From positions 77,471 to 141,470 of the forward strand of contig JAGOQU010000002.1 of assembly GCA_018063165.1 (NCBI GenBank): DNA of 64,000 nucleotides. The letters run 5' to 3'. Shown here in pieces: positions 1,546 through 57,000 of this stretch. How positions within the stretch are numbered: the stretch's first letter is position 1; every line of letters starts with the position of its first letter. Origin of the DNA: Minisyncoccota bacterium (GTDB lineage: Bacteria > Patescibacteriota > Minisyncoccia > Phycocordibacterales > UBA5272). The notes beneath the pieces are model-generated. The model was not told where the DNA came from. It did no database searches and was given only the letters and a program-made list of their open reading frames with translations. Both the position numbers and the translations under genes were made by a program.

Positions 1546-1556
1546 TACGTATTACT

Positions 1557-2911: not shown

Positions 2912-3451
2912 ATGAAAAATACTTTTATTATAGCTGTCTGTATATTTTGGGGATTCGTTATTGCTGTTATAAGTGCAGGGTATATTGTAAAACAAAATAG
3001 AATAGCTCAAGAAGATATGCAAAAGAAATATGTAGATAGTTTAAAACAGATAACTGAAAGTCTTGTAAAAACAAATCAAGGAAACACTACGACAACATCT
3101 CAACAAGCACAAGTTGTTACAAAGGGTGAGGGTGTTAAGAATGTGTCTGTAAGTAAAACTCCTACAAATGTAGGCCAAGCACCGTCTACTGTTACTTCAC
3201 CAAAGATTGTGTCTAATCAAAATTCTCTTACGATGGATATTGTAGCTAAGCATAATTCACAAAATGATTGTTGGATAGTAATTAATCGTAAGGTGTATTC
3301 TGTGACATCATATATTCCTATGCACCCAGGTGGAGCAAAAAGAATAGTACGATTGTGTGGTGCTGATGCTACTAGTGGATATGATGGACAAGGACATTCG
3401 AGTTACGCAAATTCGTTACTGGGTTCATATTTAGTTGGTCCTTTGCAATAA
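2912..3451 (+). CDS. membrane-anchored cytochrome b5-like heme-binding protein
   Basis: N-terminal transmembrane helix and a Thr/Ser-rich linker. The C-terminal CWIVINRKVYSVTSYIPMHPGG matches the cytochrome b5 signature (W..VYDVT.F...HPGG). Confidence 0.7.
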   Translation: MKNTFIIAVCIFWGFVIAVISAGYIVKQNRIAQEDMQKKYVDSLKQITESLVKTNQGNTTTTSQQAQVVTKGEGVKNVSVSKTPTNVGQAPSTVTSPKIVSNQNSLTMDIVAKHNSQNDCWIVINRKVYSVTSYIPMHPGGAKRIVRLCGADATSGYDGQGHSSYANSLLGSYLVGPLQ

Positions 3452-3455
3452 ATAA

Positions 3456-3797
3456 ATGAATTCTATTTTTCTTTTTACAGGTGTTACGGTGTGTGCGATA
3501 GGAACAGTATTTTTTTCTAATTCTCTTATTGCTCGTGAAAATAAAAAACAAGCAAACGCTGTAGTAACTTTTACAGACCAAAAATACAAAGAACATGTGG
3601 CAAGTCGTAAAGTTTCTGAGGTTCTGCCTACTAGTGTTTTAAAAAAAGAAACAGGGGGCACGAATACAAGTCTTATATTTCAATCTTCAAATTCTATTGG
3701 CGACACACAACAAAACAATAATAAAGCACAAGAACCACTTTCTGTAAAAAATAACATATATCATGATGAAGAGGATGAGGAAGAAGATGATGATTAA
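3456..3797 (+). CDS. hypothetical secreted/membrane protein with polyacidic C-terminal tail
   Basis: 113 aa. N-terminal hydrophobic segment and a DEEDEEEDDD tail. No known motif. Confidence 0.35.
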   Translation: MNSIFLFTGVTVCAIGTVFFSNSLIARENKKQANAVVTFTDQKYKEHVASRKVSEVLPTSVLKKETGGTNTSLIFQSSNSIGDTQQNNNKAQEPLSVKNNIYHDEEDEEEDDD

Positions 3798-3870
3798 AAT
3801 AGGTATCTGATTAGTAATTTTTTGAAATAGAATTTGCTTTTCATATTAGTAAGTGCTAATATGAAATAGT

Positions 3871-4137
3871 ATGGTTAAAAAAGAAAATATATATAAAGTG
3901 TTTTCAAATAAAAAAAGGGTAGAACTTATTATGTGTTTAACTCAAGAGAAATGTGTTACTGATTTACTTTCTTTGTGTACTCTTTCACAGTCAGCTTTAT
4001 CACAACATCTTAAAATATTAAAAGATGCAGATATGGTTTCTTGTAAGAGAGAATGGAAACAACAAAAATATCATGTTAAAAATAAACAGGTAAAAAAAAT
4101 AGCAGAATTATTATTAGCTTTAGAAAATAATATATAG
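3871..4137 (+). CDS. ArsR/SmtB family transcriptional regulator
   Basis: 88 aa. RVELIMCL...TDLLSLCTLSQSALSQHLKILKDADMV fits the ArsR winged-HTH pattern. Confidence 0.65.
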   Translation: MVKKENIYKVFSNKKRVELIMCLTQEKCVTDLLSLCTLSQSALSQHLKILKDADMVSCKREWKQQKYHVKNKQVKKIAELLLALENNI

Positions 4138-4140
4138 TAT

Positions 4141-4446
4141 ATGTTTGGATTATTTAGAAAAAAAGAAATGGTTGATGTAAAAGACTTGGTAAAAAATGGT
4201 GCGATTATACTTGATGTGCGTAGTAAAGAAGAATTTAATAGTGGTCATATTAAGGGAGCGGTTAATATTCCTTTAGATGCTCTTGCTTCGTCTGTTTCAA
4301 AACTTGGTAATAAAGATAAAAATATCATCACCTGTTGCATGTCAGGTGGAAGAAGTTCTATGGCAAAAAGTATTTTACATGGAGCTGGGTATAACAATGT
4401 TCATAATGGTGGTGGATGGCATTCTTTACAAAATAAACTTAATTAA
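4141..4446 (+). CDS. single-domain rhodanese-like sulfurtransferase
   Basis: 101 aa. DVRSKEEFNSGHIKGAVNIP and the CCMSGGRS active-site Cys loop are typical rhodanese. Confidence 0.75.
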   Translation: MFGLFRKKEMVDVKDLVKNGAIILDVRSKEEFNSGHIKGAVNIPLDALASSVSKLGNKDKNIITCCMSGGRSSMAKSILHGAGYNNVHNGGGWHSLQNKLN

Positions 4447-4459: not shown

Positions 4460-4702
4460 ATGACTAATAAAAAAGTGATCGTATATTCAACACAAGCGTG
4501 TCATTATTGTGTTTTGGCAAAAAATCATCTTACAAAAATGGGTGTTGCTTATGAGGATAAAAATGTTGGTGTAGATAGAGTGGCTGCACAAGAAATGATT
4601 ATGAAAAGTGGTCAAATGGGTGTTCCTGTTGTTGATATTGACGGGGAGATAATCGTAGGCTTTAGACCTGATGTTTTTGAAAAGCTTATTAATTCTAAAT
4701 AA
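4460..4702 (+). CDS. glutaredoxin-like protein (Grx/NrdH family)
   Basis: VIVYSTQACHYCVLAKNHL carries a CxxC motif and the thioredoxin-fold pattern. The internal ATG at 4460 was chosen because the track ORF 4277..4702 overlaps the upstream rhodanese gene. Confidence 0.7.
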   Translation: MTNKKVIVYSTQACHYCVLAKNHLTKMGVAYEDKNVGVDRVAAQEMIMKSGQMGVPVVDIDGEIIVGFRPDVFEKLINSK

Positions 4703-4709
4703 AAATAGA

Positions 4710-5705
4710 ATGAAAAATAAAAATAATAGCTTTGTATTATTTGGAGCAATTGGTTTGATTATATTTGCATTATTTATAGCAACTTTTACAAAGAGTAATT
4801 CTTGGCTTTTGGGTTCAGATTTTATGAATACATATAATGCTACTCCTAATTCTGTACTTGTGGATGTTAGAACTCCTGGTGAGTTTTTGACAGGACATAT
4901 TGATAAAGCTGTTAATATTGATTTTGAGAATCAGTCATTTCTTTCAGAGATTAAAAAACTTGACGTAAATAAAACATATTTCATTTATTGTCGCTCTGGC
5001 AATAGATCAGGACAGGTTATTTCTTTGATGAAAGCAAATGGAATAAAAAATATTTATGAACTACAAGGAGGAATTGTTTCTAATAAAAACACTATAACAC
5101 TTGTAACAGCAAATATCAGTGAGCCAGAATATGTTATTGATGAAAGTGATATGATTAATGGTCAGGCTCTTATTTCAGGAATAAAAAAATCAGAATTAAC
5201 TGAAAAGGAAAAACTTGGGCTTATTCAAATGCGTGAAGAAGAAAAATTAGCTCGAGATGTATATACAACACTTGGAAATGTATGGGGTACAAGAATCTTT
5301 TCTAATATTGCTTCTTCGGAACAAACACATACCGATGCTATAAAAGTGCTTCTTACAAGGTATACTATTAAAGACCCTGTAATAAATGATACTGTTGGAG
5401 TGTTCACTTCAAAAACTATGCAAGAACTTTATGATAATCTTGTTTCCCAAGGAAAAGTTTCATTATCAGAAGCTTTTAAAGTTGGTGCCACTATTGAAGA
5501 TTTAGATATTCATGATTTGGATATTCTTAAAAATGAAACAACGAAGGAAGATATTTTACTTACATACAACAATTTACAGAAAGGGTCTCGTAATCATTTA
5601 AGAGCTTTCGTAAGAGTAAGTGGTGTTAACTATACCCCTAAATATATTAGTCAGTCAGATTATGCTTCAATCATTAGCTCTTCTCAAGAAAGAGGGAGAC
5701 AGTAA
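4710..5705 (+). CDS. membrane-anchored rhodanese domain fused to a ferritin-like (DUF2202-type) domain
   Basis: N-terminal transmembrane segment. Rhodanese motifs VDVRTPGEFLTGHIDKAVNI and YCRSGNRSGQ. The C-terminal half (EEEKLARDVY ... SEQTHTDAIKVLL ... RNHLRAF) resembles the ferritin-like DUF2202 family. Start placed at the ATG after the glutaredoxin stop. Confidence 0.55.
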   Translation: MKNKNNSFVLFGAIGLIIFALFIATFTKSNSWLLGSDFMNTYNATPNSVLVDVRTPGEFLTGHIDKAVNIDFENQSFLSEIKKLDVNKTYFIYCRSGNRSGQVISLMKANGIKNIYELQGGIVSNKNTITLVTANISEPEYVIDESDMINGQALISGIKKSELTEKEKLGLIQMREEEKLARDVYTTLGNVWGTRIFSNIASSEQTHTDAIKVLLTRYTIKDPVINDTVGVFTSKTMQELYDNLVSQGKVSLSEAFKVGATIEDLDIHDLDILKNETTKEDILLTYNNLQKGSRNHLRAFVRVSGVNYTPKYISQSDYASIISSSQERGRQ

Positions 5706-5728
5706 TTATTACAATCTAAAATAGTACT

Positions 5729-6631
5729 ATGAAAATAATTAAAAATATCGGAGTCTTTGATAGAGTTATTAGATTATTTCTTTCAGAAATTTTTTTCTTA
5801 CTTGCATTTTTCTGGACATATGGAACATTACAGATCGTGTTATACGTTCTTTCGTTTGTAATGCTCGCTACGTCATTATTTAGATTCTGTGGTTTGTATA
5901 CTCTTTTCAAAATAAATACTTGTCCTTCAAATGAAAAGCTCATGTCAAAATTCACAATTGGTTTTTCCGTATTACTTTTTGTTGTAATAGCTGTGGTGGG
6001 AAGTTACTACAGCACCTTCTTCACTAAAAAATTCTTTTTAGAAGATTACAATAGAATGAATCAATACTACAAGCAAACACTTTTCTTTACTGGTCAGAAC
6101 AATCGGACAGAAGCAGTGAGTAATTACACTAATCTTGTGAAAGAGTACAGCGTTTTCTATAATAAATATTATACATATCACCCATTTGTTATTTCAAAAG
6201 ATGAGTATTTTAATGAAGATTTAATTTTAATTAAAGATAAAATTATTTCACTTGAAACTGATGTGAATAGTGGAAACCTACTTTCTACCCATTTGGAATT
6301 TGAAATAATTAGACCAATTTTCCAAGATATTTTAAAAAGGAATAATTTTTCAATGCTTGCTGTTTACTTGGTAGATTTTCATGATGCTATGGAAAAGGTT
6401 ATTGCAGGTGCAGATGCTAAGAATGCTTCAGAAGTTATTTCTGTATATCAAGAGGTAAGTGATAAACTAAAAGCAGTAGAAGATGTTGCAAATGATATAG
6501 AGATACAAACTATTCGTCAGAAATTAGAACAAATCACAGCTTCTGCAAGAAGTGGAAATGTGGAAGTTTTACCTACACAAGGAGCAGAATTAAAAAGTAG
6601 CTTTGTTAAAGTGTATTTAAAGAGAGGATAA
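5729..6631 (+). CDS. DUF2892 (YgaP-like) membrane-domain protein with C-terminal extension of unknown function
   Basis: N-terminus IGVFDRVIRLFL ... RFCGLYTLFKINTCP matches the DUF2892 pattern (DR.IR ... G.CP.Y...G..TC). That domain is commonly associated with rhodanese genes. Confidence 0.45.
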   Translation: MKIIKNIGVFDRVIRLFLSEIFFLLAFFWTYGTLQIVLYVLSFVMLATSLFRFCGLYTLFKINTCPSNEKLMSKFTIGFSVLLFVVIAVVGSYYSTFFTKKFFLEDYNRMNQYYKQTLFFTGQNNRTEAVSNYTNLVKEYSVFYNKYYTYHPFVISKDEYFNEDLILIKDKIISLETDVNSGNLLSTHLEFEIIRPIFQDILKRNNFSMLAVYLVDFHDAMEKVIAGADAKNASEVISVYQEVSDKLKAVEDVANDIEIQTIRQKLEQITASARSGNVEVLPTQGAELKSSFVKVYLKRG

Positions 6632-6655
6632 TAATAGAAAATAAATAATAAAAAT

Positions 6656-6880
6656 ATGTCAGTATTTAAAATAAAAACATCACATTGGTATATAGGAAGA
6701 ATTGTGTATCTTCTTGCTGGAATTATTACGCTCACATCAGGATTACTCGTTTTAACTACAGGGGTGGTAGCTTGGGCGTTTCTCGCATTATTCGTCGCAC
6801 TTATGCAAATAATTTTTGCTCTAACTGGATATTGTTTGAGTGCAATTATTATGGATAAGTTTGGTATTCCAAGAGAATAA
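6656..6880 (+). CDS. small DUF2892-family membrane protein
   Basis: 74 aa, two transmembrane segments. GRIVYLLAG ... LTGYCLSAIIMDKFGI is DUF2892-like. Confidence 0.45.
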   Translation: MSVFKIKTSHWYIGRIVYLLAGIITLTSGLLVLTTGVVAWAFLALFVALMQIIFALTGYCLSAIIMDKFGIPRE

Positions 6881-6915
6881 AAAGTGTTCTATCTAATTAA
6901 TACATTTTTTATATA

Positions 6916-8427
6916 ATGAAGAAAAACATAAAAAATATAATACATAATAGTGTTTATTTTAGACGTGTTTTTTTAATTAAAATAGTATTGTTTATTGTTT
7001 TATGTGTAGGTATTTGGAATGTTTGGAAACCTTTACCTGAAAATATTAATAAAAAATGGGGGCAAAGAAATGTGAATGAATCTCAGGTTGCATTTTTGCA
7101 AGACACTACTTACTTTACTTCCGAGGGAGAAAGGAAAGTTGATCAACATATTTTTAATGAAGTTATAGGTATGGTGCGTAATGCGCATTCCTATATTCTT
7201 GTAGATATGTTTTTATGGAATGATTATCTTGGTGGATCAACTACAACACAAAGAAAAATCGCACAAGAATTAGCAACAGAACTTATTCTTAAAAAGAAAG
7301 AAAATCCAAATATAGTAATTGAAGTAATTAGTGACCCTATTAATATTTCCTATTACGGAGGAGTGTCTGATATTTTTGAAAACATGAAAAAGTCTGGTAT
7401 TGATGTAACATTTACGAACCTTTCAAAATTAAGAGACAGTAATCCACTTTTTTCTTCTTTTTGGAGAGTTTTTGTTAATTCTCTTGATATGTTACACGTA
7501 TATCTTTTTAATTCTTATTATACATTTAGAATTTTCCCTAATATTATTAATGCTGGTGGTGAGCCTGTAACACTACGATCATTTCTCTCATTGTTAAATT
7601 TTAAAGCTAACCATAGAAAATTAATAGTTACAGATGAGTTTAGAGAGGGTGGTATACATTATGTAAGCTTAGTGGCATCAGCAAATCCTCACGATGGATC
7701 AAGTTCTCATAGTAATGTAGCAATTAAGATTGACGGTGATATAGCGAAAGATATTATTCTAAGTGAAAATCAGATTTTAAATCTCTCAGGAAAAAGTACT
7801 AAAGCTCAGACATTAGATAACGTTGCGCCTAGTGGTGATATAAAAGTTGCTTTAGTTACAGATGGTGCTATTAAAGATGAAGTTATTTCTCTTATAAGAA
7901 ATACACAAAAAGGTGATTCTATTAATCTGTTAATGTTTTATATTTCAGATAGGGATATTATTAGAGAATTGGTTGATGCTGCAAAAAGAGATGTTTCTGT
8001 GCATATTATTCTTGACCCAAATAAAGATGCGTTTGGAAGAGAGAAAAATGGAATTCCTAATAGAGAAACCGCTGATTCTTTAGTTAAAAAAAGTTCCAAT
8101 AAAATAGTTATTAGATGGTGTGATACACATGGAGAACAGTGTCATGGAAAAATGCTATTAGTAAAACAAAAAGATACACATTCAGTGTTACTTGGTTCAG
8201 CTAATTATACAAGAAGAAATATCGGTGGATATAATCTTGAGACAGATATTTTAGTAACATCAAAAAATGTATTTACAGCATGGAATGATTCATCAGAATA
8301 TTTTTCAAAACTTTGGAATAATGAAAATATGCTTTTTACAACTGAATATACTGTATACAAAGACGAATCAGTTTTTAAGAAAATAATTTCTTGGATAATG
8401 GAAAATAGTGGAGTAGGAACATTTTAA
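6916..8427 (+). CDS. phospholipase D / cardiolipin synthase family protein
   Basis: N-terminal transmembrane segment. Two HKD-like motifs: HRKLIVTD ... SANPH and HGKMLLVKQKDTHSVLLGSANYTRRN. Confidence 0.55.
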   Translation: MKKNIKNIIHNSVYFRRVFLIKIVLFIVLCVGIWNVWKPLPENINKKWGQRNVNESQVAFLQDTTYFTSEGERKVDQHIFNEVIGMVRNAHSYILVDMFLWNDYLGGSTTTQRKIAQELATELILKKKENPNIVIEVISDPINISYYGGVSDIFENMKKSGIDVTFTNLSKLRDSNPLFSSFWRVFVNSLDMLHVYLFNSYYTFRIFPNIINAGGEPVTLRSFLSLLNFKANHRKLIVTDEFREGGIHYVSLVASANPHDGSSSHSNVAIKIDGDIAKDIILSENQILNLSGKSTKAQTLDNVAPSGDIKVALVTDGAIKDEVISLIRNTQKGDSINLLMFYISDRDIIRELVDAAKRDVSVHIILDPNKDAFGREKNGIPNRETADSLVKKSSNKIVIRWCDTHGEQCHGKMLLVKQKDTHSVLLGSANYTRRNIGGYNLETDILVTSKNVFTAWNDSSEYFSKLWNNENMLFTTEYTVYKDESVFKKIISWIMENSGVGTF

Positions 8428-21563: not shown

Positions 21564-22676
21564 ATGCATAAAATATCTGGTGTGTTTAGCAAAGCAGATT
21601 TTGAGCGTTTGATTTGTTCTAGGCGAATTAAGACACTTAAAGGTTTCAAAGAGGACCATCTTAATCCTGCTTCTCTTGATATTACAACAACAGGAGAAGT
21701 TTTTCGTATTAACCGTCTACTCCAACCAAGTCAACTTGAAAATGAGACAGTTAGAAGTCTACTTTCAAAGATGGAAGCAGATCAAGTTCATGTTGGATCT
21801 GTTATGGAAGTTGGTGCTACATATTTAGCAAAAGCTAGTATAGATATTAACTTTCCTCCTGGTATGTATGGATATTTGAATGCAAAATCAAGCTGTGGAA
21901 GGAATTTTCTTTTCGTGAGATCTCTTGCTGACGGTATTCATGAATTTGATTCCGTTGATAGAAGAAATCATGGATATACAGGGGAATTGTGGCTTGTTAT
22001 CCAACCACTTGCTTTTCCTGTAATTCTTTCTGATAAAGAATGTTACAATCAACTTCGTGTTTTTGATGCTGATACTCGTTTTAGTAAAACTGATCTAGAA
22101 CAACTTCTTTGCGAAAGAGATATTTTATATAGGCGTAATCAGGAGCCATATAAACAAGGTGAGCTTTCTCTTTTTACTAATGATGGTTCTGTACTTTGTA
22201 CGTTAGATGCTTTACCAAAGAAACATGTTGGATATAAAGCAAAAAGTACAAATGTACCAATAGATCTTACAAAAAGAAAATCACTTAACCCTCATGATTT
22301 TTTCGATCCAGTGATTGCAGAATCTTTTGGTGAAGGGAAATATGATGGTTTTGTGCATGTTGAGGCTGGTCATCATTATTTACTTGCTACAAATGAGATG
22401 CTTAAAATTTCTGTTGACTATACAGCAGAATTAACAGCGCTTGACCCTCGTCTAGGTTTCTTTTTTACCCATTTTGCAGGTTTTTTTGATCCTGGCTTTT
22501 TTGGAACAGGAACGTTAGAAGTGTTTGCACCTCATAATACATTTCTTAGACACAAACAACCTCTTGCGCGCTTTGTTTTTGAGAAAATGAAAAATAAAGC
22601 ACCATCGTATGCAGATAATGGTAACTATAGTGGTCAAATCGAAACACAATTACCAAAACAGTTCGCTGATTGGTAG
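21564..22676 (+). CDS. dcd: 2'-deoxycytidine 5'-triphosphate deaminase, long (about 365 aa) form
   Basis: 370 aa. The C-terminal half (HFAGFFDPGFFGTGTLEVFAPHN) and AKSSCGRN align to Dcd motifs (GRSSLAR and DPGW.G...LE). The length matches the long-form Dcd family. Confidence 0.55.
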   Translation: MHKISGVFSKADFERLICSRRIKTLKGFKEDHLNPASLDITTTGEVFRINRLLQPSQLENETVRSLLSKMEADQVHVGSVMEVGATYLAKASIDINFPPGMYGYLNAKSSCGRNFLFVRSLADGIHEFDSVDRRNHGYTGELWLVIQPLAFPVILSDKECYNQLRVFDADTRFSKTDLEQLLCERDILYRRNQEPYKQGELSLFTNDGSVLCTLDALPKKHVGYKAKSTNVPIDLTKRKSLNPHDFFDPVIAESFGEGKYDGFVHVEAGHHYLLATNEMLKISVDYTAELTALDPRLGFFFTHFAGFFDPGFFGTGTLEVFAPHNTFLRHKQPLARFVFEKMKNKAPSYADNGNYSGQIETQLPKQFADW

Positions 22677-22680
22677 TATA

Positions 22681-22712
22681 AAAAAAACGGTCCTCGGACC
22701 GTTTTTTATTTT
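22681..22712 (+). terminator. rho-independent terminator
   Basis: AAAAAAACGGTCCTCGGACCGTTTTTTATTTT. Confidence 0.7.
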
Positions 22713-22724
22713 TGATATACTATA

Positions 22725-23147
22725 GTGATGAAACTTAAAATTAAAAAATTATACGAAAATACAAAATTACCAACACGAGCTCATCATGATGATGCTGGAA
22801 CTGATATGTATGCACAAGGTGATCACATTGTAGAACCTCACACAACTGTTGTAATTCCAACAGGTGTTGCTATGGAATTAGAAAAAGGATATGTGTCACT
22901 TATTTGGGATAAATCTTCAGTTGGATCAAAAGGTATTAAGACATTGGGTGGAGTGATTGATGCAGGGTATCGTGGGGAATATAAAATCATTGTTCATAAT
23001 TTGAATAACGAAGCATATACGTTTACACATGGAGATAAGGTTGCACAACTCCTCGTACAAAAAGTTGAATTTCCAGAACTTGAGGAGGTTGTTGAACTTA
23101 ATGATTCGACACGTGGAGAAGGGGGTTTTGGAAGTACAGGGAAGTAA
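22725..23147 (+). CDS. dut: dUTP diphosphatase
   Basis: 140 aa. AGTDMYA, GVIDAGYRGE and the C-terminal RGEGGFGSTG dUTPase motifs. Confidence 0.85.
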   Translation: MMKLKIKKLYENTKLPTRAHHDDAGTDMYAQGDHIVEPHTTVVIPTGVAMELEKGYVSLIWDKSSVGSKGIKTLGGVIDAGYRGEYKIIVHNLNNEAYTFTHGDKVAQLLVQKVEFPELEEVVELNDSTRGEGGFGSTGK

Positions 23148-23231
23148 CCTCTGCTATTTCTTATTGTTTTAAAGTGTGTAATAAAGAAAAATAAAAAAGC
23201 GATACGTGTACACGTATCGCTTTTGCTGTTT

Positions 23232-24182
23232 TTAAGTCAGAAGAGTCGCACCAATTTTTCCTTGATTCTTATAGTCAATGATTCGAATATCATCCATGGT
23301 AAAAGAGTCTATGTCTTTTATTTCTGGATTAAGCCAAAGTTTAGGTCCTTTGTTAGGAGTTCTTTCTAATTGTTTATTTACAGCTTTTAGATGTCCGTTT
23401 TTCCATACAGGTTTTTTTTCTGCATCAAGACCTGCAAGGTAAATATGACAGTCTTCAAGTGTAATAACAAGCTCCCCAGGAATCATTCCTACACACTGAG
23501 CAACCATGTGATTTAGCATTGCATAACTTGCAATATTGAAAGGTTCTCCAAGAAACATATCACATGACCGTTGATCCATTGAAGTATCAAGATACATTTT
23601 CTTATCGCGTCTATGGCTTGGTCTTACAAAGAATTGCATCTTCATATGGCACGGAGGTAAACACATGTCATCAAGTTCTCCGGGGTTCCATGCATTAACA
23701 ACATGATAACGCATGAAAGGGTCTTCTTTTAACTGTCGTATTACTTTTGCTAATTGATCAATTGAATTACCTTCTGTTGTTTTCCAATCTCTCCATTGTG
23801 CACCGTAAATACGACCGCAGTCTCCTTCGAATTGAGCTCTACCTTTTTTTGCAAAATTTAACTGATCTCCAGTCCACACATTTTTTGCATTAGAAGGTTT
23901 ACCCATTAACTCATTGAATTTTGCTATAGATAGTCTGCCTCCGGTTTCTTTACCTGCATCAAGTAACCAAAGAAGTTCTGCTTTAATAACTTCAAAAGCT
24001 GTAAACTTTGTAGTTATAAGAGGAAAGTTTTTTTGTAAATCAAAGCGCATTTGATGTGCAAAAATTGCAGTGGTAATACCATTGCGACCTTTTCGTCTTG
24101 TTCCTTCTCTTTTTATTTTTCTAAGTACCTCTAGATATTCATCTTCATTTGGGTTAATTCTCGGTATTAATGTAATCATCAT
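23232..24182 (-). CDS. thyA: thymidylate synthase (ThyA family)
   Basis: PPCHMKMQFFV and QRSCDMFLGEPFNIASYAMLNHMVAQ are near-identical to the E. coli ThyA active-site region. The start was moved to an internal ATG preceded by GGAGG, because the track ORF has a 25 aa N-terminal extension. Confidence 0.8.
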   Translation of the reverse strand: MMITLIPRINPNEDEYLEVLRKIKREGTRRKGRNGITTAIFAHQMRFDLQKNFPLITTKFTAFEVIKAELLWLLDAGKETGGRLSIAKFNELMGKPSNAKNVWTGDQLNFAKKGRAQFEGDCGRIYGAQWRDWKTTEGNSIDQLAKVIRQLKEDPFMRYHVVNAWNPGELDDMCLPPCHMKMQFFVRPSHRRDKKMYLDTSMDQRSCDMFLGEPFNIASYAMLNHMVAQCVGMIPGELVITLEDCHIYLAGLDAEKKPVWKNGHLKAVNKQLERTPNKGPKLWLNPEIKDIDSFTMDDIRIIDYKNQGKIGATLLT

Positions 24183-24354
24183 TTTTCCTCCAAAAAGTTT
24201 ATGTAAAGAACTGGTGTATACCAAACAAACTCTACATGTTTTTTGTCTTTGAAGCAACTCTATGTTTTATTTGTTATATTTTCTTTTTATTTTTAAAACT
24301 ATTGTGTTAGTATATGCTTCTAAACTATCGTTCTTTTACATATAAGGAGATGTG

Positions 24355-25050
24355 ATGAAAACTGGAAAAGTAGGAAAACGCACAAGGTTAATTTTAATAG
24401 AAGGAGATGACGTTTCTTCTAAAGAAAAACAAACAAAACTCTTAGTTAACCAGCTTCGAAAAGAAAAATACACAGTTGCAAATATTTCTTTTCCTTACTA
24501 CATACAAACATTTACAGAGTCTTTTAACGGAAAACCAGAAACCAGATTTTCACCATTTGATTATTCAGAGGTTTATAAAGATGAAGCAAAAACCTTTTGC
24601 ACTTCTAAAGGAGAAGATTTTGCATCTTGTTTAGAAGCTTTAATTAAAGAAAATGACATAGTTGTTTTTGATAGATATATTGAATCTAATTTACTTTTTT
24701 ATGGTTCTCAGATTTTAATGGATATTGATAAAATTAATTTTGCTCATTATCTGTTTAATGCTGAATATAAAATTAGCAAGATGCCAAAACTTTCTGATGT
24801 GGTGTATCTTTCTGTTCCTTGGAGTCTTATGCATAAAAGATTTTTATTAAAAAATCCTCATATAGATACTTCTTCTGAACAAGTAAAGAATGACATTGAA
24901 GCAATAAAAAAACAATATGAATCTGGGAATTTTTATTCTAAATTATTAGAATGGAAAATGGTTAGTTGCGTATCTGATTTTCGTGATCTTTCTGAAGAAG
25001 AGGTTCATAATCATATTATGGCTTTGTTAGGGTTTAGGTGCCATATTTAA
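24355..25050 (+). CDS. thymidylate kinase-like protein with degenerate P-loop
   Basis: LILIEGDDVSSKEKQ aligns to the Tmk P-loop (IEG.DGSGKTTQ) but reads GDDVSSKE. VVFDRYIESNLLFYGSQ matches the Tmk DRY motif. AAGGAG lies 5 nt upstream of the ATG. Confidence 0.5.
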   Translation: MKTGKVGKRTRLILIEGDDVSSKEKQTKLLVNQLRKEKYTVANISFPYYIQTFTESFNGKPETRFSPFDYSEVYKDEAKTFCTSKGEDFASCLEALIKENDIVVFDRYIESNLLFYGSQILMDIDKINFAHYLFNAEYKISKMPKLSDVVYLSVPWSLMHKRFLLKNPHIDTSSEQVKNDIEAIKKQYESGNFYSKLLEWKMVSCVSDFRDLSEEEVHNHIMALLGFRCHI

Positions 25051-25121: not shown

Positions 25122-26825
25122 GTGATGAATGCTTATAATATAATAACGCAAGAAATAAAAAAAATAGTAGGTGAGGGTGTTGATTTTTCTGTTTCTATTT
25201 CAGAAGATTTTTCTCGAGGTGACTATTCAACAAATCTTGCTTTTGTTCTTGGTAAACAAAAAAGTATTACTCCGAATATGTGTGCTGAAGAACTTGTTCC
25301 AATTCTACAAGAAAAACTTATTGCTGTTGTAGAAAAAATAGAAGTTGCTGGACCTGGCTTTATTAATTTTTCTTTGAAGAAAGAAATTATAAGAGAAGAA
25401 ATTTTGAGATGTCAAAAATTAGAAACATTTACAACAAAATACACAGATAAAAAAGTTCTGGTTGAACACTCATCTCCAAATCTTTTTAAACCATTTAGTG
25501 TTGGTCTCCTTCTTAATCATATTGCTGGAGCATCACTTACCCATCTTATGAAAGCAGGGGGTGCAAAGGTTACAACAGTTTCATTCCCTTCAGATATTTC
25601 TATGGGTATTGCAAAAGCAGTGTACTCAATAAAAAAAGATGGTGGACTTTCTCAAGACATTTTTAATAAAAGTCAGGAAGAGGTTATTGCATATCTTGGC
25701 AGTGCATATACCCGAGGCGTCACATCATTTGATGAATCAGAGTCTGTACAAGGAGAAGTAAAAGAAATTGCAGAGAAACTCTATAGTGAAACACCAAGTG
25801 AAGAGTTCGATATTTTTGAAAAAGGGAAGAATATAAATGTTGCATATTTTGAACACATGCTTTCACTTCTTGGTTCACATTTTGACGGATTCATTTATGA
25901 AAGTGAAGCAGCTGTAGTTGGTAAAGAGATAGTACTTGCACGAGAGGACATATTTACTCATAGTGAAGGTGCTATTGTGTATATTCCAGACGAGGGGACA
26001 AAGGGTGTGCATACGGCAGTATTTATTAATAGTCAAAGGAATCCAACATATGAAGCAAAGGATCTTGGTCTCCTTCATATGAAATTTGAACGTTACACCC
26101 CGGACTATTCTTTTTTTGTTACCGATAATGAGCAAATCTCTCATTTTAATGTTGTGCTCGATGCTGCTTCAAAAATTGAAAAGAAATGGAAAGAGGTGAG
26201 CACTCATGTGTATCATGGTCGTATGACATTTAAGGGTCAGAAGATGTCGAGTAGACTTGGAGGCGTTCCTCTCGCACAAGAAATTTTGGATGTTGTTACA
26301 GACGAAGTAAAAGAAAGATCTGGTGAAAAAATAGATCATCTTACAGAAGAAGAAAAGAACGTCGTATACAAGCAGGTTGCGCTCGGAGCGCTTCGCTTCT
26401 CTATGCTCCGCTCGAAACTTGGTAGTTCAATTAATTTTGATCCAGAAACATCACTCTCATTTGAAGGAGATTCTGGTCCATATGTGCAGTACACCTATGC
26501 ACGAGGAGTATCACTTTTAGCAAAAGGAAAAGAATTAGGATTTTCACCATCGTATCATTCTGGAGAAGAAGTTACGATTCTTGAAAGAAAACTCATGCAG
26601 TGGGAAGGGGTTGCTTTGCGTGCCATAGAAGAAATAGCTCCTCAATATGTTGTAACTTATCTTTTTGAGCTTGCTCAGATGTTTAATAGTTTCTATGCAT
26701 CGACTCCAATTGTTGTAAAGGGTGATGATCTCTCAGAACATAGACTAGCTATTACAGAATCTGTAACGAAAGTGATTAAAAAAGCACTACACCTTCTCGC
26801 TGTTGAAGCACCAGAGAGAATGTAG
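25122..26825 (+). CDS. argS: arginine--tRNA ligase
   Basis: 567 aa with overall ArgRS architecture, a QKMSSR variant of KMSKS and a C-terminus ending APERM as in bacterial ArgRS. The HIGH position appears to read SVGL by eye. Confidence 0.75.
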   Translation: MMNAYNIITQEIKKIVGEGVDFSVSISEDFSRGDYSTNLAFVLGKQKSITPNMCAEELVPILQEKLIAVVEKIEVAGPGFINFSLKKEIIREEILRCQKLETFTTKYTDKKVLVEHSSPNLFKPFSVGLLLNHIAGASLTHLMKAGGAKVTTVSFPSDISMGIAKAVYSIKKDGGLSQDIFNKSQEEVIAYLGSAYTRGVTSFDESESVQGEVKEIAEKLYSETPSEEFDIFEKGKNINVAYFEHMLSLLGSHFDGFIYESEAAVVGKEIVLAREDIFTHSEGAIVYIPDEGTKGVHTAVFINSQRNPTYEAKDLGLLHMKFERYTPDYSFFVTDNEQISHFNVVLDAASKIEKKWKEVSTHVYHGRMTFKGQKMSSRLGGVPLAQEILDVVTDEVKERSGEKIDHLTEEEKNVVYKQVALGALRFSMLRSKLGSSINFDPETSLSFEGDSGPYVQYTYARGVSLLAKGKELGFSPSYHSGEEVTILERKLMQWEGVALRAIEEIAPQYVVTYLFELAQMFNSFYASTPIVVKGDDLSEHRLAITESVTKVIKKALHLLAVEAPERM

Positions 26826-28216: not shown

Positions 28217-28353
28217 CCTGGCCAAGAAATCACTTCCAAGCGTAAGCGTTAGGAAGTAAATTTCTTGTCTTAATTTAGAGAAGTGTATTGCTAGTTTCCC
28301 TGGCCAAGAAATCACTTCCAAGCGTAAGCATTAGGAAGTAAATTTCTTGTCTT
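28217..28353 (+). repeat. two copies of a 54 bp hairpin-forming direct repeat (units 28217..28270 and 28309..28353)
   Basis: Unit CCTGGCCAAGAAATCACTTCCAAGCGTAAGCGTTAGGAAGTAAATTTCTTGTCTT contains an internal inverted repeat (AAGAAATCACTTCC / GGAAGTAAATTTCTT). An extra inverted repeat lies at 28200..28231. Confidence 0.6.
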
Positions 28354-28498
28354 GTCCTAATTTTGATGTTTTTTCTCTTGCACCATTATTATTTTCTGTT
28401 AGTATTAAGTAATAAGAGATACGTTGAAGGAATTAATCACTCCTGAGTATGGGAAGAACCTGACATCTCGTCACAAGTAGAACCCGAGTAAATGAGTT

Positions 28499-28538
28499 GG
28501 ATGGTATTTTTTGAAATGCATTTCAAAAAATACCATCC
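28499..28538 (+). promoter_or_regulatory. perfect 40 bp palindrome in the ileS leader
   Basis: GGATGGTATTTTTTGAAATG followed by its exact reverse complement CATTTCAAAAAATACCATCC. Confidence 0.6.
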
Positions 28539-28546
28539 AAAAAACA

Positions 28547-28560
28547 AGGTGGTACCACGA
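28547..28560 (+). promoter_or_regulatory. T-box-like sequence motif in the ileS leader (hypothetical)
   Basis: AAGGTGGTACCACG matches the T-box consensus AGGGUGGNACCGCG at 12 of 14 positions. It lies about 75 nt upstream of the ileS ATG. Confidence 0.3.
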
Positions 28561-28632
28561 CCAAACATCGTCCTTGGAAAAGAAATTAAATTCTTTTCTG
28601 TGGGCGATTTTTATTTTACTAAAAAACAAATC

Positions 28633-31600
28633 ATGAGCAATAATCAAACTAACACCCCAAAAACAATAAGTGAAAAAGAACAGGAGACACTGAAGTTCTG
28701 GCAAGAAAATGCTATTTTTGAAAAAACAATAACAACTCCTGCTAACGAAGAAGCGCGAGGAGATTTTTCATTTTATGACGGACCTCCGTTTGCAACAGGA
28801 CTTCCTCACTATGGACATATTCTTGCGGGTACTATAAAAGATACAATACCTCGATATCAAACAATGAAAGGGAACAGTGTGCGTCGTGTGTGGGGGTGGG
28901 ATTGTCATGGTCTACCAATTGAAAATTTGATTGAAAAGAAACTTGGTCTTACAAGTAAAAAAGATATTGAGGATTTTGGTATTGATAAGTTTAATAAAGA
29001 TGCTAACGATAGTGTTCTTACATACGAAGAGGAATGGAAAAAAGTTGTTCCACGTCTTGGTAGATGGGCTGACATGGATAGACCGTACAAAACAATGGAT
29101 GCAACATATACAGAAAGTATTTGGTGGGCATGGAAACATTTACACGAAAAAGGTTTGGTATACGAGGGGCATAAAATGATGCACATATGTCCACGTTGTG
29201 AGACAACCCTTGCTCAAAGTGAAGTTGGTATGGAATACACAGATATTACAGATTTATCTGTTACAGCTAAGTTTGAACTTGTTGATGAACCAGGGACATT
29301 TGTTCTTGCGTGGACTACTACACCTTGGACTCTTCCAGGTAATAGTGCTCTTGCTGTTAAAGGAGATGCTTCATATGTAGTGGTTGATATAGATGGTATG
29401 GAAGGAAAGTATATTCTTGCAGAAGAAAGAGTTGAACATGTTCTTAAAGATATGAAGTGTGAAGTTGTTAAAAAAATGAAAGGTGAAGATTTGGTAGGAA
29501 AAAAATATATACCACCATTCCCATATTTTAAAGATTCTGATATTGAGTATAAAGAAAATGCGTTCAAGATTTGGCATGCTGATTTTATTACATTAGATAC
29601 AGGTACAGGTATTGCTCATGAGGCTCCAGCATTTGGTGCTGAAGATATGGATCTTGCAAAGCTTCATTCTATTCCTGTTATAAAGCATGTAAAAATGGAT
29701 GGAACATTCATATCTACAGTTACTGATTTTGCTGGAATAAAAGTAAAAGCAAAAGATGATACACAGTCAGCAGATATAGAAATTATTAAATGGCTTGCTC
29801 ATCATAATGTACTTTTTGAAAAACATAAAATTATACATTCATACCCACTTTGTTGGCGCTGTAAAACGCCGTTACTCAACTATGCAACGTCATCGTGGTT
29901 CGTTGATGTTCCGAAGATAAAAGACAAGCTTCTTTCTGAGAATCAGAAGATTGGGTGGACACCTGCGCACACACGTGACGGGCGTTTCGGTAAATGGTTA
30001 GAAGGTGCTCGTGAATGGGCTGTTTCACGTAGTCGTTATTGGGGTGCACCACTTCCAGTTTGGAAAAATGATGATGGTGAAGCGATGATGATTGGCTCTC
30101 TTAAAGAATTAGCAGAACATACATCACAAAAACCAAAAAATACATATTATATAATGCGTCATGGTGAGTCTGTGAGTAATCAAGATGGTATTCTTGAAAC
30201 TAAAGGTGATCCAAATAATCATTTAACAGAAAAAGGAAAAGCACAAGTTATGGATTCTCTTGCTCTTATTAAGTCTCTAGGTATTGATGTTATAATTACA
30301 TCTCCTTTTGTGAGAACAAGAGAAACTGCTGCTATTGTGTCATCTTTTTTAGATATACCTGTAGAGACCGAAGATAGAATACATGAATATGATATGGGTG
30401 AATTTAGTGGGAAGAAGGCTACAGAATATATGGAATATTATGGTCATTCATATTTACGTTTTAATACTCGTCCAAAAGGCGGTGAAACTCATGAAGAGAT
30501 GATGAATAGATCAATGAGTGCAATTATGGATTTTGAGAATCGTTACGAAGGTAAAAATATACTTGTGGTTACTCATGGCGGACCAGCTCGTATGATGCTT
30601 ATTGGTGGAGAACTTTACACAGAAGAAGAAGCTCTTCTTGATGAACGTGCAGTAATAACAACTCTGTATCTTGGTAATGCTGAAATACGAAAACTTAATT
30701 TAAAAATTGTACCACGTGATGAAACTGGTGCTGTTAATCTTCATAGACCATATATTGATAATGTAACGCTTTCAGTAAATGATAAAATATACACACGTAT
30801 ATTAGACGTATTTGATTGTTGGTTTGAGTCAGGGTCTATGCCGTTTGCTTCCATCCACTATCCGTTTGAAAATAAAAAAATATTTGATAAAAATTATCCA
30901 GCTGATTTTATTGCCGAAGGGGTTGATCAGACGCGTGGGTGGTTTTATTCACTTATTAATTTAGGTGTTGGTCTTTTTGATAAAGCACCATATAAACACG
31001 TTATAGTTAATGGTCATATATTGGCATCATCAGGTTTAAAACTTTCAAAGAGTGAAAAGAATTATACAGACCCAATGGAGCTTGTAGAAAAATATGGAGC
31101 AGATGCAATGAGATACGCTCTTATAGCTAGTCCTGCTGTTAAAGGTGAAAACGTTCAGTTTGATGATGAAAATGTTTCTGAGATATATAAGAAATGTATA
31201 TCTAGACTTGAGAATGTTGTGACTCTATATGAAATGAATAAACCAGAGAAGACTCAACCTTTGAATACTTCAGAAAATATTCTTGATAGTTGGATGATAT
31301 CCCGCATTAATGAACTTGTAACAGAATCAACAAAAGGATATGAAGAGTATATGCTTGAAGATGCTACAAGAGGTATAGCAGAAATTATTGATGATATATC
31401 TGTGTGGTATACAAGAAGATCAAGAGATCGTTTAAAAGGGGATGAGGGTGAGATGTCTAAGAAAGAAGCTTATCAAACACTAAAATATACGTTACTAACT
31501 CTTTCAAAAGTGATGGCACCAGTGATGCCTTTCATATCAGAAAGAATATATAAACAGTGTGATGGCGAAAAAGAATCTGTTCATTTAGAATCATGGCCGA

Positions 31601-32082
31601 TATCAGATAATATAGATTATGAAATAATTAAAGATATGAAGATTGTACGAGAACTTGTTTCCCTTGGTCTAATGAAAAGAACTGAAACAAAAATAAATGT
31701 AAAGCAACCACTTCTTTCTGTTTCATTTAAGAAAGTTGTTTCTGGTAAGTACAATAATCTTATTAAAGATGAGTTAAATGTAAAAGATGTTTTCTATAAT
31801 GATTCACAAAAAGAAGATGTTGTTCTTGATACAACGATCACAGAAGAGTTACAGAAGGAGGGTGATATACGTAAACTTATTCGTGCTGTTCAAGACATGA
31901 GAAAAGCAAAAGGACTTAAACAGGTAGACGAAATTAATCTTGTTGTTTCTTCATTAACATCTTTAGGGGATATGTCACTTCTTGTATCAACGTGTAAAAT
32001 AAAAGAAATTAAAGAAGATGTTAGTATTAAAGATAATAGTATTGAATTATCCTCAGGTGTTTTATGTTTTGTATTAGAGTAA
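28633..32082 (+). CDS. ileS: isoleucine--tRNA ligase (type 2-like) with an inserted histidine-phosphatase (PGAM-like) domain
   Basis: HYGH (HIGH) and KLSKS (KMSKS), the editing-domain region, WAVSRSRYWGAPLPVW and DCWFESGSMP. The start was placed at MSNNQTNTPKT because the track ORF extends upstream through the palindrome. Residues encoded by about 30139..30714 carry RHGESVSN and VVTHGG, characteristic of the histidine phosphatase superfamily. Confidence 0.85.
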   Translation: MSNNQTNTPKTISEKEQETLKFWQENAIFEKTITTPANEEARGDFSFYDGPPFATGLPHYGHILAGTIKDTIPRYQTMKGNSVRRVWGWDCHGLPIENLIEKKLGLTSKKDIEDFGIDKFNKDANDSVLTYEEEWKKVVPRLGRWADMDRPYKTMDATYTESIWWAWKHLHEKGLVYEGHKMMHICPRCETTLAQSEVGMEYTDITDLSVTAKFELVDEPGTFVLAWTTTPWTLPGNSALAVKGDASYVVVDIDGMEGKYILAEERVEHVLKDMKCEVVKKMKGEDLVGKKYIPPFPYFKDSDIEYKENAFKIWHADFITLDTGTGIAHEAPAFGAEDMDLAKLHSIPVIKHVKMDGTFISTVTDFAGIKVKAKDDTQSADIEIIKWLAHHNVLFEKHKIIHSYPLCWRCKTPLLNYATSSWFVDVPKIKDKLLSENQKIGWTPAHTRDGRFGKWLEGAREWAVSRSRYWGAPLPVWKNDDGEAMMIGSLKELAEHTSQKPKNTYYIMRHGESVSNQDGILETKGDPNNHLTEKGKAQVMDSLALIKSLGIDVIITSPFVRTRETAAIVSSFLDIPVETEDRIHEYDMGEFSGKKATEYMEYYGHSYLRFNTRPKGGETHEEMMNRSMSAIMDFENRYEGKNILVVTHGGPARMMLIGGELYTEEEALLDERAVITTLYLGNAEIRKLNLKIVPRDETGAVNLHRPYIDNVTLSVNDKIYTRILDVFDCWFESGSMPFASIHYPFENKKIFDKNYPADFIAEGVDQTRGWFYSLINLGVGLFDKAPYKHVIVNGHILASSGLKLSKSEKNYTDPMELVEKYGADAMRYALIASPAVKGENVQFDDENVSEIYKKCISRLENVVTLYEMNKPEKTQPLNTSENILDSWMISRINELVTESTKGYEEYMLEDATRGIAEIIDDISVWYTRRSRDRLKGDEGEMSKKEAYQTLKYTLLTLSKVMAPVMPFISERIYKQCDGEKESVHLESWPISDNIDYEIIKDMKIVRELVSLGLMKRTETKINVKQPLLSVSFKKVVSGKYNNLIKDELNVKDVFYNDSQKEDVVLDTTITEELQKEGDIRKLIRAVQDMRKAKGLKQVDEINLVVSSLTSLGDMSLLVSTCKIKEIKEDVSIKDNSIELSSGVLCFVLE

Positions 32083-32121: not shown

Positions 32122-32676
32122 ATGGCTATAGAAAAGTACACAACTGAATGTATAGTGGTAGAGTCGTTCAATAACGGAGAGCACGATAAAGTATATAAAG
32201 TTTTTACAAGAGATTTTGGTATGATACTAGCGCATGCTAAAAGTATTAGAAAACTTGAAAGTAAACTTCGCGCACATATTCAAGAAAGAAGTGTAAGTCT
32301 GATTACTCTTGTACAAGGTAGAGATGTTTTTAGATTGGTTGGTGCAGAAGAGAGATATACAGAAAAAATGTTTATTCATGAAGTTGTTTCTCTTCTTAAA
32401 CGTTTTGTTCGTGGAGAGGGTGCACATAAAGCGTTATATGATAGACTTATTATTTTTTTAAAAACAAAAGCATCGTACGACATATCTTTATCAAGAACAC
32501 TTCTCTACTATATTGTTTTGGTTGAACTTGGGTATGCAGATTCTAAAGTTATTGGTGCAAAAAGTAATAAAGAATATGTTTCTTGGACAAATGATGATTT
32601 GTATACTCATTGTATTTTATCTCACGCTTTAGTAAAAGCACATGTGCATGATGTGCTTAAAGAAATGCAATTATAA
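32122..32676 (+). CDS. recO: RecO-like DNA repair protein (short form)
   Basis: 184 aa. The N-terminal OB-fold region (ECIVVESFNNGEHDKVYKVFTRDFGMILAHAKSIRK) resembles the RecO N-terminus. Shorter than canonical RecO. Confidence 0.4.
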   Translation: MAIEKYTTECIVVESFNNGEHDKVYKVFTRDFGMILAHAKSIRKLESKLRAHIQERSVSLITLVQGRDVFRLVGAEERYTEKMFIHEVVSLLKRFVRGEGAHKALYDRLIIFLKTKASYDISLSRTLLYYIVLVELGYADSKVIGAKSNKEYVSWTNDDLYTHCILSHALVKAHVHDVLKEMQL

Positions 32677-52994: not shown

Positions 52995-53185
52995 ATTGAA
53001 TAGTATAACTCTTTTTTTAGAAATAAATAGTTGGAGGAATCGGTCACAAAACTACCTCGCTTTGCTCGAAGTAGTTTCCCGACCCGTATTCGATTCCGCC
53101 GAAAGCCAAGCAGTTGGCTTTCTCCTTTTCCTCACTGAAATATAAAAATACCCCTAGGGTTACCTAAGGGTATTTTTATATTTAG

Positions 53186-53575
53186 TGGAGGTGGGCGGAA
53201 TCGAACCCCCGTGTACTAAGGTATGATGCATGGGTCTACTGTACGTAGTTTGCTTATATGTGTTCGCATGCATTATAGAAAACAAACGAAAACAATGAAT
53301 GTATAGCATGAATTATTTCAATAGTAATGCTATGCAACATTACAATCTACTTCCACTGTTATATTGCCCAGACTTTTTCCGTGGTTACGAAAAAGAAGGA
53401 CACCCGGTCGGCCAGTATTTAGGCGAACGCAGGAACTAGACCAAACGCGTATGGCGATGGAATAGCCTTACCAGTTGTTTTTGCAACATGGGCGCTCTAA
53501 CGTTAACGAGTGCTAGAGCAGTCTCGGTACAGCGCATACAACATATTCTTAGTGTCAAAGCCAAAGATCACCCCC
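53186..53575 (-). ncRNA. ssrA: tmRNA (ssrA)
   Basis: Minus-strand 5' end GGGGGUGAUCUUUGGCUUUGACAC resembles tmRNA 5' ends (GGGGCUGAUUCUGGAUUCGAC). The 3' end has a T-arm GGGGGUUCGAUUCCGCC and acceptor CACCUCC pairing with the 5' GGGGGUG, then A/CUA. An internal ORF begins at a GCA resume-like codon and encodes AKTTGKAIPSPYAFGLVPAFA followed by stop. smpB is adjacent. Confidence 0.7.
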
Positions 53576-56841: not shown

Positions 56842-57000
56842 TACGCACTTCTCCTTATAGTTAGACTTTTTTGAAAGATATTAAATACACCTTTCAAAAT
56901 ATATAGTACTCTTTTAGGCTTTTTTGTAAAGTGCTCACAATATAAAAAGCACACTGTCATTTCATGGTGAATATGATATAGGTATATTTTATATACAAAG

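Follow-up and report, generated by a model that had tools for sequence, protein, structure and literature searches.

The ileS gene and its phosphatase domain

The window, the 64,000-nucleotide stretch of DNA analysed here, comes from a Minisyncoccota bacterium (GenBank assembly GCA_018063165.1, contig JAGOQU010000002.1, positions 77,471 to 141,470 of the forward strand), and the subject of this study is its gene ileS::HP, which encodes a type-2 isoleucyl-tRNA synthetase (IleRS) with a histidine phosphatase (HP) inserted in it. The gene and all parts of it described in this section lie on the plus strand. An open reading frame (ORF) scan of the window gave a single uninterrupted frame of 1196 codons at 28492..32082, and the identical NCBI entry MBP6948690.1, which lies on a 175-kb contig and is labelled "class I tRNA ligase family protein", has a gene call of 1188 residues. 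The first ATG of the frame (28492) falls inside a T-box-like leader, and the annotated N-terminus is probably too long: since codons 1-47 overlap this leader and the homologues begin MSNNQ..., we take Met48 (nucleotide 28633) as the probable real start, so that the gene spans 28633..32082 and encodes 1149 residues. Residue numbers are counted from Met48 unless ORF residues are stated.

Pfam and the alignment with IleRS2 of Priestia megaterium (8C8U) assign the N-terminal part of the protein (28633..30129) to the first half of the Rossmann fold and the CP1/editing domain; it carries the HYGH motif at 28807-28818 and the WAVSRSRYWGAPLPVW strand at 30016-30063. The inserted domain, a branch-1 HP of about 200 residues resembling phosphoglycerate mutase (PGAM), occupies 30130..30729 and was identified with PF00300, AlphaFold and Foldseek. 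The C-terminal part (30730..32079) holds HRPYID, DCWFESGSMP (30814-30843), KLSKS (31039-31053), the anticodon-binding domain and the type-2 C-terminal domain (DUF5915). On the whole protein, Pfam finds tRNA-synt_1 in two pieces around His_Phos_1, followed by Anticodon_1 and DUF5915, and PF08264 and PF19302 are present. The score with the ileS equivalog TIGR00392, 842 bits against a cut-off of 621.4, makes the protein a member of the IleRS family, and its best solved relatives are 8C8U and yeast IleRS. It is collinear over the whole synthetase with the type-2 enzymes of P. megaterium and Thermus thermophilus (1ILE), at E 2.5e-214, and shares with them the HxGH and KMSKS motifs and the CP1 editing, anticodon-binding and type-2 C-terminal domains; with 8C8U, the collinearity runs through the editing domain and its WTTTPWTLPGN and GTGIAHEAP motifs. 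The original prediction, made from the DNA alone, had described HYGH and KLSKS as intact in a continuous frame, and translation confirmed both at the coordinates given; both are also kept across 66 full-length homologues, which come from the 80 species-genome loci described below. Judged by its sequence, the synthetase is an intact type-2 IleRS with its editing domain, and isoleucine-charging activity is predicted for it.

The same prediction held that a complete PGAM-type HP, recognisable by RHGESVSN and VVTHGG, lies inside the synthetase, and it named a profile search and structure modelling as checks. Both came out in its favour. PF00300 matches the translation of 30139-30714 with E 2.3e-36 and 125.7 bits, far above the gathering cut-off of 21.7, and within the whole protein it matches ORF residues 553-703 (nucleotides 30148-30600; E 6.9e-35). 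The catalytic residues are all present and in frame: the RHG motif (30157-30165) with Arg509, the nucleophile His510 and Gly511; Asn516 (30178-30180); Arg561 (30313..30315), the second phosphate-binding arginine, in SPFVRTRETA; Glu585 (30385..30387), the general acid, in HEYDMG; and His648 (30574..30576), the second catalytic histidine, in the THG motif (30571-30579) of VVTHGG. The six residues Arg509, His510, Asn516, Arg561, Glu585 and His648 match their PhoE counterparts in an alignment, and they are invariant in 66 of 66 homologues. Across the same homologues the insert has a mean pairwise identity of 36% and the synthetase's catalytic core one of 70%; the insert evolves at the rate of the peripheral domains. 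Modelled alone with AlphaFold, the domain reaches a predicted local distance difference test score (pLDDT) of 96.8 and a predicted template-modelling score (pTM) of 0.92, and Foldseek relates it with probability 1.0 to PspA, PhoE, GpgP, CobC, HFP and dPGMs. The insert is thus modelled as an autonomously folding PGAM-type domain, and from its residues it is apparently a catalytically competent, active branch-1 HP, with phosphatase activity predicted. In the full-length AlphaFold model the insert is the best-predicted region and the Rossmann core is poorly predicted; because the overall pTM is 0.44, the geometry between the phosphatase and the synthetic site cannot be read from this model.

The insert has the fold of the small phosphatases PhoE/YhfR (1H2E, 1EBB), PspA (4IJ5), CobC, GpgP Rv2419c and HFP (9MMH), with template-modelling scores of about 0.6-0.7, and shares with them the RHG, Arg, Glu and His set, a compact cap and a length of about 190 residues. 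It differs from them in that it is 23-31% identical, scores below the equivalog cut-offs and is embedded in, or genetically tied to, a synthetase. Identification as a CobC alpha-ribazole phosphatase (TIGR03162, 78.1 bits against a cut-off of 162.9), a PspA phosphoserine phosphatase (NF045917, 70.4 against 350) or SixA (TIGR00249, 34.9 against 74.5) was rejected, with the same outcome for the free-standing forms described below. A dPGM was rejected as well (dPGM_arch, 92.5 against 225; pgm_1, 28 against 81.7): the dPGM substrate-binding motifs FTGW and ERHYG are absent from the insert, which reads RHGESVSNQDGILETKGD and HEYDMGEFSG. NF005567, the actinobacterial RNase H/acid phosphatase, is among its top curated families, and at 81 bits against a cut-off of 326 the insert is no member of it. 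By these scores the insert stands outside every curated subfamily tested, all equivalog models being far below their cut-offs.

Residues 4-480 and 485-918 of 8C8U pair with window residues 6-499 and 700-1122, and therefore about 200 residues (30130-30729) stand in place of a loop of about 4 residues. In the 66 homologues the junctions are fixed: the N-terminal one reads ...GS(L)xEL...K.(G/K)N.Y.(M)RHG, the C-terminal one ...P(H/R)(N/D)...(L)HRPYID. Since 11 of the 66 keep the CxxC...CxC(G) cysteine pairs on both sides of the insert, the loop can be recognised as the tip of a zinc-knuckle hairpin; in the other 55, the window protein included, the Cys4 zinc ligands are gone. Compared with type-2 IleRS, the window protein has therefore gained some 200 residues at the tip of this hairpin and lost the four cysteines. 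Between the WGxPLPVW strand and the DCWFESG helix, in the Rossmann fold's second half, this alignment thus shows a former Cys4 zinc-knuckle hairpin with the HP at its tip. The earlier description of the site as the linker between the editing side and the KMSKS half was right in placing the insert between those segments, but the site is a hairpin tip inside the second half of the Rossmann fold and no simple inter-domain linker. The loss of the zinc ligands would suit an insert that serves as a scaffold in place of the knuckle and has given up catalysis. We regard such a purely structural role as very improbable, because the six catalytic residues have stayed invariant at 36% identity and are kept in the free-standing proteins too.

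An intein was ruled out. No Pfam match to a Hint domain is present in the window protein, and intein boundary residues (Cys/Ser/Thr, His-Asn) are absent at ...KPKN/TYYIMRHG and ...PRDETG/AVNLHRPY (the slash marks the junction) and across the 66 sequences, which extends to the homologues what had been noted for this insert. A scan with one genome per species covered flank, insert and flank in at least 80 species genomes at 39-73% identity, so that the proposed survey of ileS in related genomes returned the same insertion; the carriers are Parcubacteria/Paceibacteria and include Paceibacterota and Kaiser-, Wolfe-, Adler-, Yonath-, Taylor-, Vogel-, Nomura- and Lloydbacteria. A stop-free frame of at least 1100 codons was found in 66 of the 80 genome loci, and PF00300 matches all of the 120 best full-length database homologues (63-100% identity). 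These observations bear on the possibility, raised with the original prediction, that an error of assembly or gene calling has joined ileS to a separate phosphatase gene. Such an artefact has practically no chance of being the explanation: the frame is continuous with fixed junctions in those 66 loci, GC content shows no break at the insert junctions in the window, and mis-assembly is excluded by the agreement of at least 80 independent species genomes and by the identical MBP6948690.1 on its 175-kb contig.

Free-standing and inserted forms

The range of architectures in which the HP occurs emerged from an exhaustive HMMER search that used the insert as query and from subsequent parsing of domains by hidden Markov models (HMMs) built from the family. 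In sister Parcubacteria lineages it is a free-standing protein of about 190 residues and 19 kDa, annotated merely as "histidine phosphatase family protein" or "PhoE" (Staskawiczbacteria and other Patescibacteria). On the contig of one such protein, P0257 (locus L082), a 189-residue HP ends 1 nucleotide before an insert-less IleRS of 931 residues, and the gene order is smpB-infC-rpmI-rplT-argS-HP-ileS-x-recO. The window has the same neighbourhood, with argS, ileS::HP, recO, DUF11 and an AI-2E transporter (Pfam); argS (25122..26825, plus strand; Pfam, synteny) is the upstream anchor of the argS-(HP)-ileS-recO arrangement and a recO-like gene (32122..32676, plus strand; Pfam RecO_N, synteny) the downstream one. 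Four short matches that looked like stand-alone genes (P0023, P0029, P0040 and P0041) were discarded as gene-call fragments of fused IleRS. From sequence and position, the inserted HP is one and the same as the small protein whose gene lies directly upstream of ileS in sister Parcubacteria, and the two have a common origin.

A metagenome scan queried with seven free-standing HP sequences gave 80 loci. In 47 of these the HP has its own ORF directly upstream of an ileS that lacks the insert, in 2 it lies 0.7-1.1 kb upstream of ileS, and in 21 it is inserted at the position found in the window (site 1); the remaining 10 have no same-strand ileS downstream, about half of them ending at a contig edge and three having a convergent ileS. 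Because the loci were picked by similarity to free-standing forms, these proportions are not prevalences. Among all loci, both copies occur together only in L011, which has a divergent free HP at 3458-4327 and an inserted HP in the ileS at 4642-8073; this locus may be an intermediate between the free and the inserted state.

The HP has also entered IleRS elsewhere. It stands at site 2, after HYPF... and before FPADFIAEG, in P0314, P0267, P0275 and P0255, and at site 3, before the LDRWI helix of the anticodon-binding domain, in P0243, P0254, P0267 and P0275, both sites being verified by sequence reading and Pfam. A further placement, between CP1 and the GWTP segment, was found in P0241, and IleRS with two to four HP copies are represented by P0378, P0324 (from Candidatus Peribacteria), P0376, P0311 and P0241. 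The core Arg, His, Arg and His are retained in essentially all site-2, site-3 and free-standing copies. Locus L084 (5001-9260), of the P0267 cluster with six members on contigs of up to 1.06 Mb, encodes an IleRS of 1419 residues that has one HP at site 2 and another at site 3, while site 1 is empty. The neighbouring gene products, an adenylosuccinate synthase, a DAHP synthase and an SLH-domain protein, are untypical of a candidate-phyla-radiation (CPR) genome, and from them the association of IleRS with the HP may extend beyond this radiation.

The free and inserted states are not separated on the IleRS tree. When the HP is masked and 155 IleRS cores are placed in a neighbour-joining tree (only distance trees were built), insert-less and site-1 proteins interleave, neither state is monophyletic in any of 100 bootstrap replicates (0/100), and Fitch parsimony requires at least 6 state changes. 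An example is the inserted locus L120, whose IleRS is 66% identical to that of the free locus L119, where the mean between site-1 cores is 50%. With the free HP of L119 the L120 insert shares 58% identity and with free HPs of related loci up to 62%, against 53% with the best other insert; a complete free protein (N-terminal KN.YF.LRHG to C-terminal KNGEIR) is embedded there, flanked by GSxK(D/E)L and (L)D(L/F)HRPYID, with the zinc knuckle intact. Read from these trees and identities, the two states appear to have been interchanged repeatedly, with at least 6 changes, though horizontal transfer or recombination may have contributed to the pattern.

The two states differ in charge as well. Free HPs have a median net charge of +11 per 100 residues, or about +20 for the whole protein, against +1.2 per 100 residues in the IleRS encoded beside them. 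In 78% of cases the free HP lies above the 95th percentile of long ORFs in these loci. Inserted HPs resemble the synthetase, with -2 per 100 residues, and L110, L120 and L143, where the insertion is recent, fall in between (+5 to +8.5 per 100 residues). A small enzyme with such a basic charge usually binds a polyanion.

Against this background one can ask whether the HP belongs to IleRS at all. It could be an independent housekeeping phosphatase, acting on phosphoserine or a sugar phosphate or serving as a "missing" phosphoglycerate mutase, that has no part in aminoacylation and is tied to ileS only through inherited synteny and co-expression, with insertion into a tolerant surface loop working as a ratchet that is not easily undone. 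The CPR gene order argS, ileS, recO, AI-2E transporter is conserved around the site anyway, the closest solved relatives (PhoE, PspA, GpgP and HFP) are metabolite phosphatases, and the insert evolves at the pace of a peripheral domain. Phosphoglycerate mutase is reported to be undetected in several shallow Parcubacteria clades (PMC7304191), a gap that gives a hint in this direction and only a hint. We nevertheless consider this explanation quite unlikely, since the repeated switching, the at least three further insertion sites and the multi-copy variants all fall inside IleRS, a locus almost never has both a free and an inserted copy (L011 is the sole exception), the charge pattern is unusual for a metabolic enzyme, the dPGM, PspA, CobC and SixA models score far below their cut-offs and the dPGM motifs are absent.

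Two HPs joined to other proteins, each a single case, suggest another kind of role. At L081 (6001-8070), within this same gene neighbourhood, an ArgRS carries a C-terminal HP and is followed by recO with no ileS between them, and at L168 (977-2140) a Sua5/TsaC protein is fused to an HP that is 49% identical to an IleRS insert. IleRS, ArgRS and Sua5/TsaC all form adenylates and release pyrophosphate (PPi), as does ATP sulfurylase, a further partner. The HP could then clear a product, hydrolysing PPi as an unconventional pyrophosphatase, or AMP or another nucleotide, beside the synthetic site and so pulling activation or recycling the nucleotide. A diffusible substrate would fit the varied insertion sites and the variants with two to four copies, and nucleotide-like phosphatases, CobC for one, are among the curated families with the highest scores. 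At L142, moreover, a family I inorganic pyrophosphatase gene (2306-2803) lies 14 nucleotides upstream of ileS::HP, where the free HP sits elsewhere; it is the sole ppa match in 1.59 Mb of related loci, the query being an E. coli Ppa sequence. The same gene cuts the other way, because with a canonical family I enzyme present in at least this genome the HP is no substitute for a missing pyrophosphatase, and that idea was dropped. The theme of PPi-releasing partners is also thin: the tandem two-domain free relatives that were looked up are not from the CPR, and the ATP-sulfurylase and CinA fusions are of undetermined organism. We know of no branch-1 enzyme that hydrolyses PPi. Product clearance leaves unexplained both the basic charge of the free forms with its loss on insertion and the choice of IleRS among about 20 PPi-releasing synthetases, and we hold it to be unlikely.

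Branch-1 members include protein and phosphohistidine phosphatases such as PGAM5, Sts-1 and SixA, which brings a regulatory role into view: the HP may dephosphorylate IleRS or a partner (e.g., a serine of the KMSKS loop, as modified by a HipA-like kinase toxin), or it may sense a phosphometabolite and tune IleRS. With 62 residues from Glu585 to His648, the cap region is short, which suggests an open pocket, and the Rossmann half that bears KLSKS is also the one that contains site 1. On the other side, no kinase or toxin gene was seen in the neighbourhoods examined, SixA stays under its cut-off and the basic free forms are left unexplained, all of which makes this role distinctly improbable. 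A link to anti-phage defence was dropped on the outcome of a PADLOC search, which gave nothing for the insert and for the free HP a marginal match only (E 4.6e-4, 18 bits, to a Cas4-like nuclease model).

Other features of the window

Upstream of ileS, at 28415..28578 on the plus strand, lies the T-box-like leader, which matches RF00230 weakly (E 5e-7), its 38.8 bits falling short of the gathering score of 93. Within it are AAGGUGGUACCACG and, at 28497-28540, a perfect 22+22-nucleotide palindrome. A similar leader is present at 4381-4567 of L001, a close relative of the window and the sole positive among six related loci; none was found in the free-HP loci L082, L086, L100 and L119 or in the inserted-type L120. 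The intergenic region upstream of the leader contains a 55-nucleotide direct repeat (28217-28271 and 28299-28353), whose copies are 98% identical, lie 82 nucleotides apart and each have internal hairpin potential.

On the minus strand, a tRNA-Ile gene with anticodon UAU (TAT) is found at 57000-57073. It suggests that AUA is read without the usual lysidine-modified CAU tRNA, and it may be relevant to tRNA recognition by the window IleRS. A tmRNA gene lies at 53183-53575 (minus strand; RF00023, 81 bits), and tmRNA or smpB occurs near the argS-ileS neighbourhood in 5 of the 6 related loci scanned, L001 being the exception. Just upstream of argS, at 21564-25050, pyrimidine deoxynucleotide genes are clustered: those for dCTP deaminase, dUTPase, thymidylate synthase (minus strand) and a thymidylate-kinase-like gene. 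A NOX/ferric-reductase-like membrane flavocytochrome with Ferric_reduct and FAD- and NAD-binding domains (1500-2900, plus strand) is followed by a cytochrome b5-domain protein (2912-3451, plus strand), a pair that is unexpected in a reduced CPR genome.

Discussion

Based on these findings, we propose that the window encodes a bifunctional type-2 IleRS with an autonomous, predicted-competent HP at a hairpin tip, and that this HP is a conserved, dedicated partner of IleRS in Parcubacteria and some other CPR lineages and no random passenger, a conclusion we consider very probable. The HP can be called a dedicated partner or subunit because it is found free or inserted, almost never both, with repeated switching between the two states; its placement at other IleRS loops, its multiple copies and the single ArgRS and Sua5/TsaC fusions also count in favour of this. 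From its deep retention as a neighbour gene, as an internal domain at several loops and in multiple copies, we argue for a real biochemical step linked to isoleucine charging.

Aminoacyl-tRNA synthetases are among the best-studied enzymes, and we know of no bacterial member that requires a phosphatase. The leucine-specific domain of LeuRS is one of the surface-loop insertion modules of class Ia synthetases. Zinc knuckles and the "INS" module in ARD2 of IleRS2 are others, and they resemble the case described here as surface-loop insertions that were tolerated or exploited (bioRxiv 10.64898/2026.02.03.703510). Such modules are small and non-catalytic, whereas the HP of the window is an entire enzyme whose active site does not vary and which has a counterpart in the free-standing protein. 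A nearer parallel is IleRS with a GNAT domain (NF040702, ileS_w_GNAT; P0072), likewise a bacterial IleRS with an extra enzymatic domain inside; there, however, the domain is GNAT, the insertion precedes the GWTP/WGxP segment and the lineage is another. The window protein was rejected as a member of ileS_w_GNAT (287 bits against a cut-off of 1999) and has no GNAT Pfam match. P0072 itself is an IleRS fragment with a GNAT acetyltransferase before the GWTP/WGxP segment and represents a second kind of enzyme insertion into IleRS. The RNase H/acid phosphatase of the Rv2228c type (NF005567) shares with the window protein the joining of a CobC-like branch-1 domain to a nucleic-acid enzyme, but that fusion is terminal and its partner is RNase HI, in contrast to an internal insertion in a synthetase.

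Our literature search found no description of an IleRS-HP fusion or of an HP-ileS gene pair, in line with the original prediction, whose author knew of no described fusion of this kind between an aminoacyl-tRNA synthetase and a phosphatase. A 2026 preprint that segments about 1500 IleRS mentions neither phosphatase nor Patescibacteria nor CPR in its text (bioRxiv 10.64898/2026.02.03.703510). The architecture itself is already visible in public databases through automatic Pfam annotation; labels such as "class I tRNA ligase family protein" and "histidine phosphatase family protein, partial" hide the relationship between IleRS and the HP. Extra synthetase domains are thus a known theme, and a conserved phosphatase partner, predicted to be catalytically intact, is a new variant of it.

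As for what the HP does, we suggest that its target is a phosphomonoester on the RNA that the synthetase charges, in the simplest case a phosphate in the 2' or 3' position of the tRNA acceptor end, and we give this a probability of roughly 0.35. The original prediction had named, as speculation, a phosphorylated nucleotide or RNA end, such as a 2',3'-cyclic or 3'-phosphate of tRNA, or a nucleotide by-product. An RNA-borne phosphate is favoured as the substrate mainly because the free HPs are so basic, and the tRNA version is somewhat more plausible because of the dedicated linkage of the HP to ileS together with this basic charge. Left in place, such a phosphate at the tRNA end would block aminoacylation. 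In the scheme we envisage, the phosphate would pass to His510, giving a phospho-histidine intermediate, and Glu585 would donate a proton to the leaving ribose oxygen; the same polypeptide could then charge the repaired tRNA. The free HP would need its own affinity for RNA and hence a net charge of about +20; the built-in HP would be brought to the tRNA by the synthetase, so that the charge could become dispensable and be lost. Still more tentatively, IleRS in a large part of the CPR might work with a free basic or a built-in HP as a two-enzyme machine in which a phosphate on tRNA(Ile), e.g., one at the 2' or 3' terminus that damage or a toxin has left, is removed just before charging.

Several points weigh against an RNA end as the substrate. 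To our knowledge, no branch-1 HP acts on RNA ends, and the proposal does not explain why IleRS alone among the synthetases should need end-healing. RNA-repair genes of the RtcB, 2H/LigT and Pnkp types are not among the annotated neighbour genes. With a pTM of 0.44 for the full-length model, the position of the phosphatase site relative to the tRNA cannot be derived, and what the basic charge binds could instead be the ribosome or some other partner. The history of the states rests on neighbour-joining trees and on metagenome loci biased to relatives of the free form.

Whatever its substrate, the HP has been kept in active-looking form, over deep evolutionary time, by an essential synthetase of a major and largely uncultivated radiation. 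The locus offers a rare natural series in which a neighbouring gene becomes an internal domain and possibly reverts. If the proposed action on tRNA is true, it would constitute a new step of tRNA repair or quality control coupled to aminoacylation, and the HP would be the first RNA-directed branch-1 histidine phosphatase.

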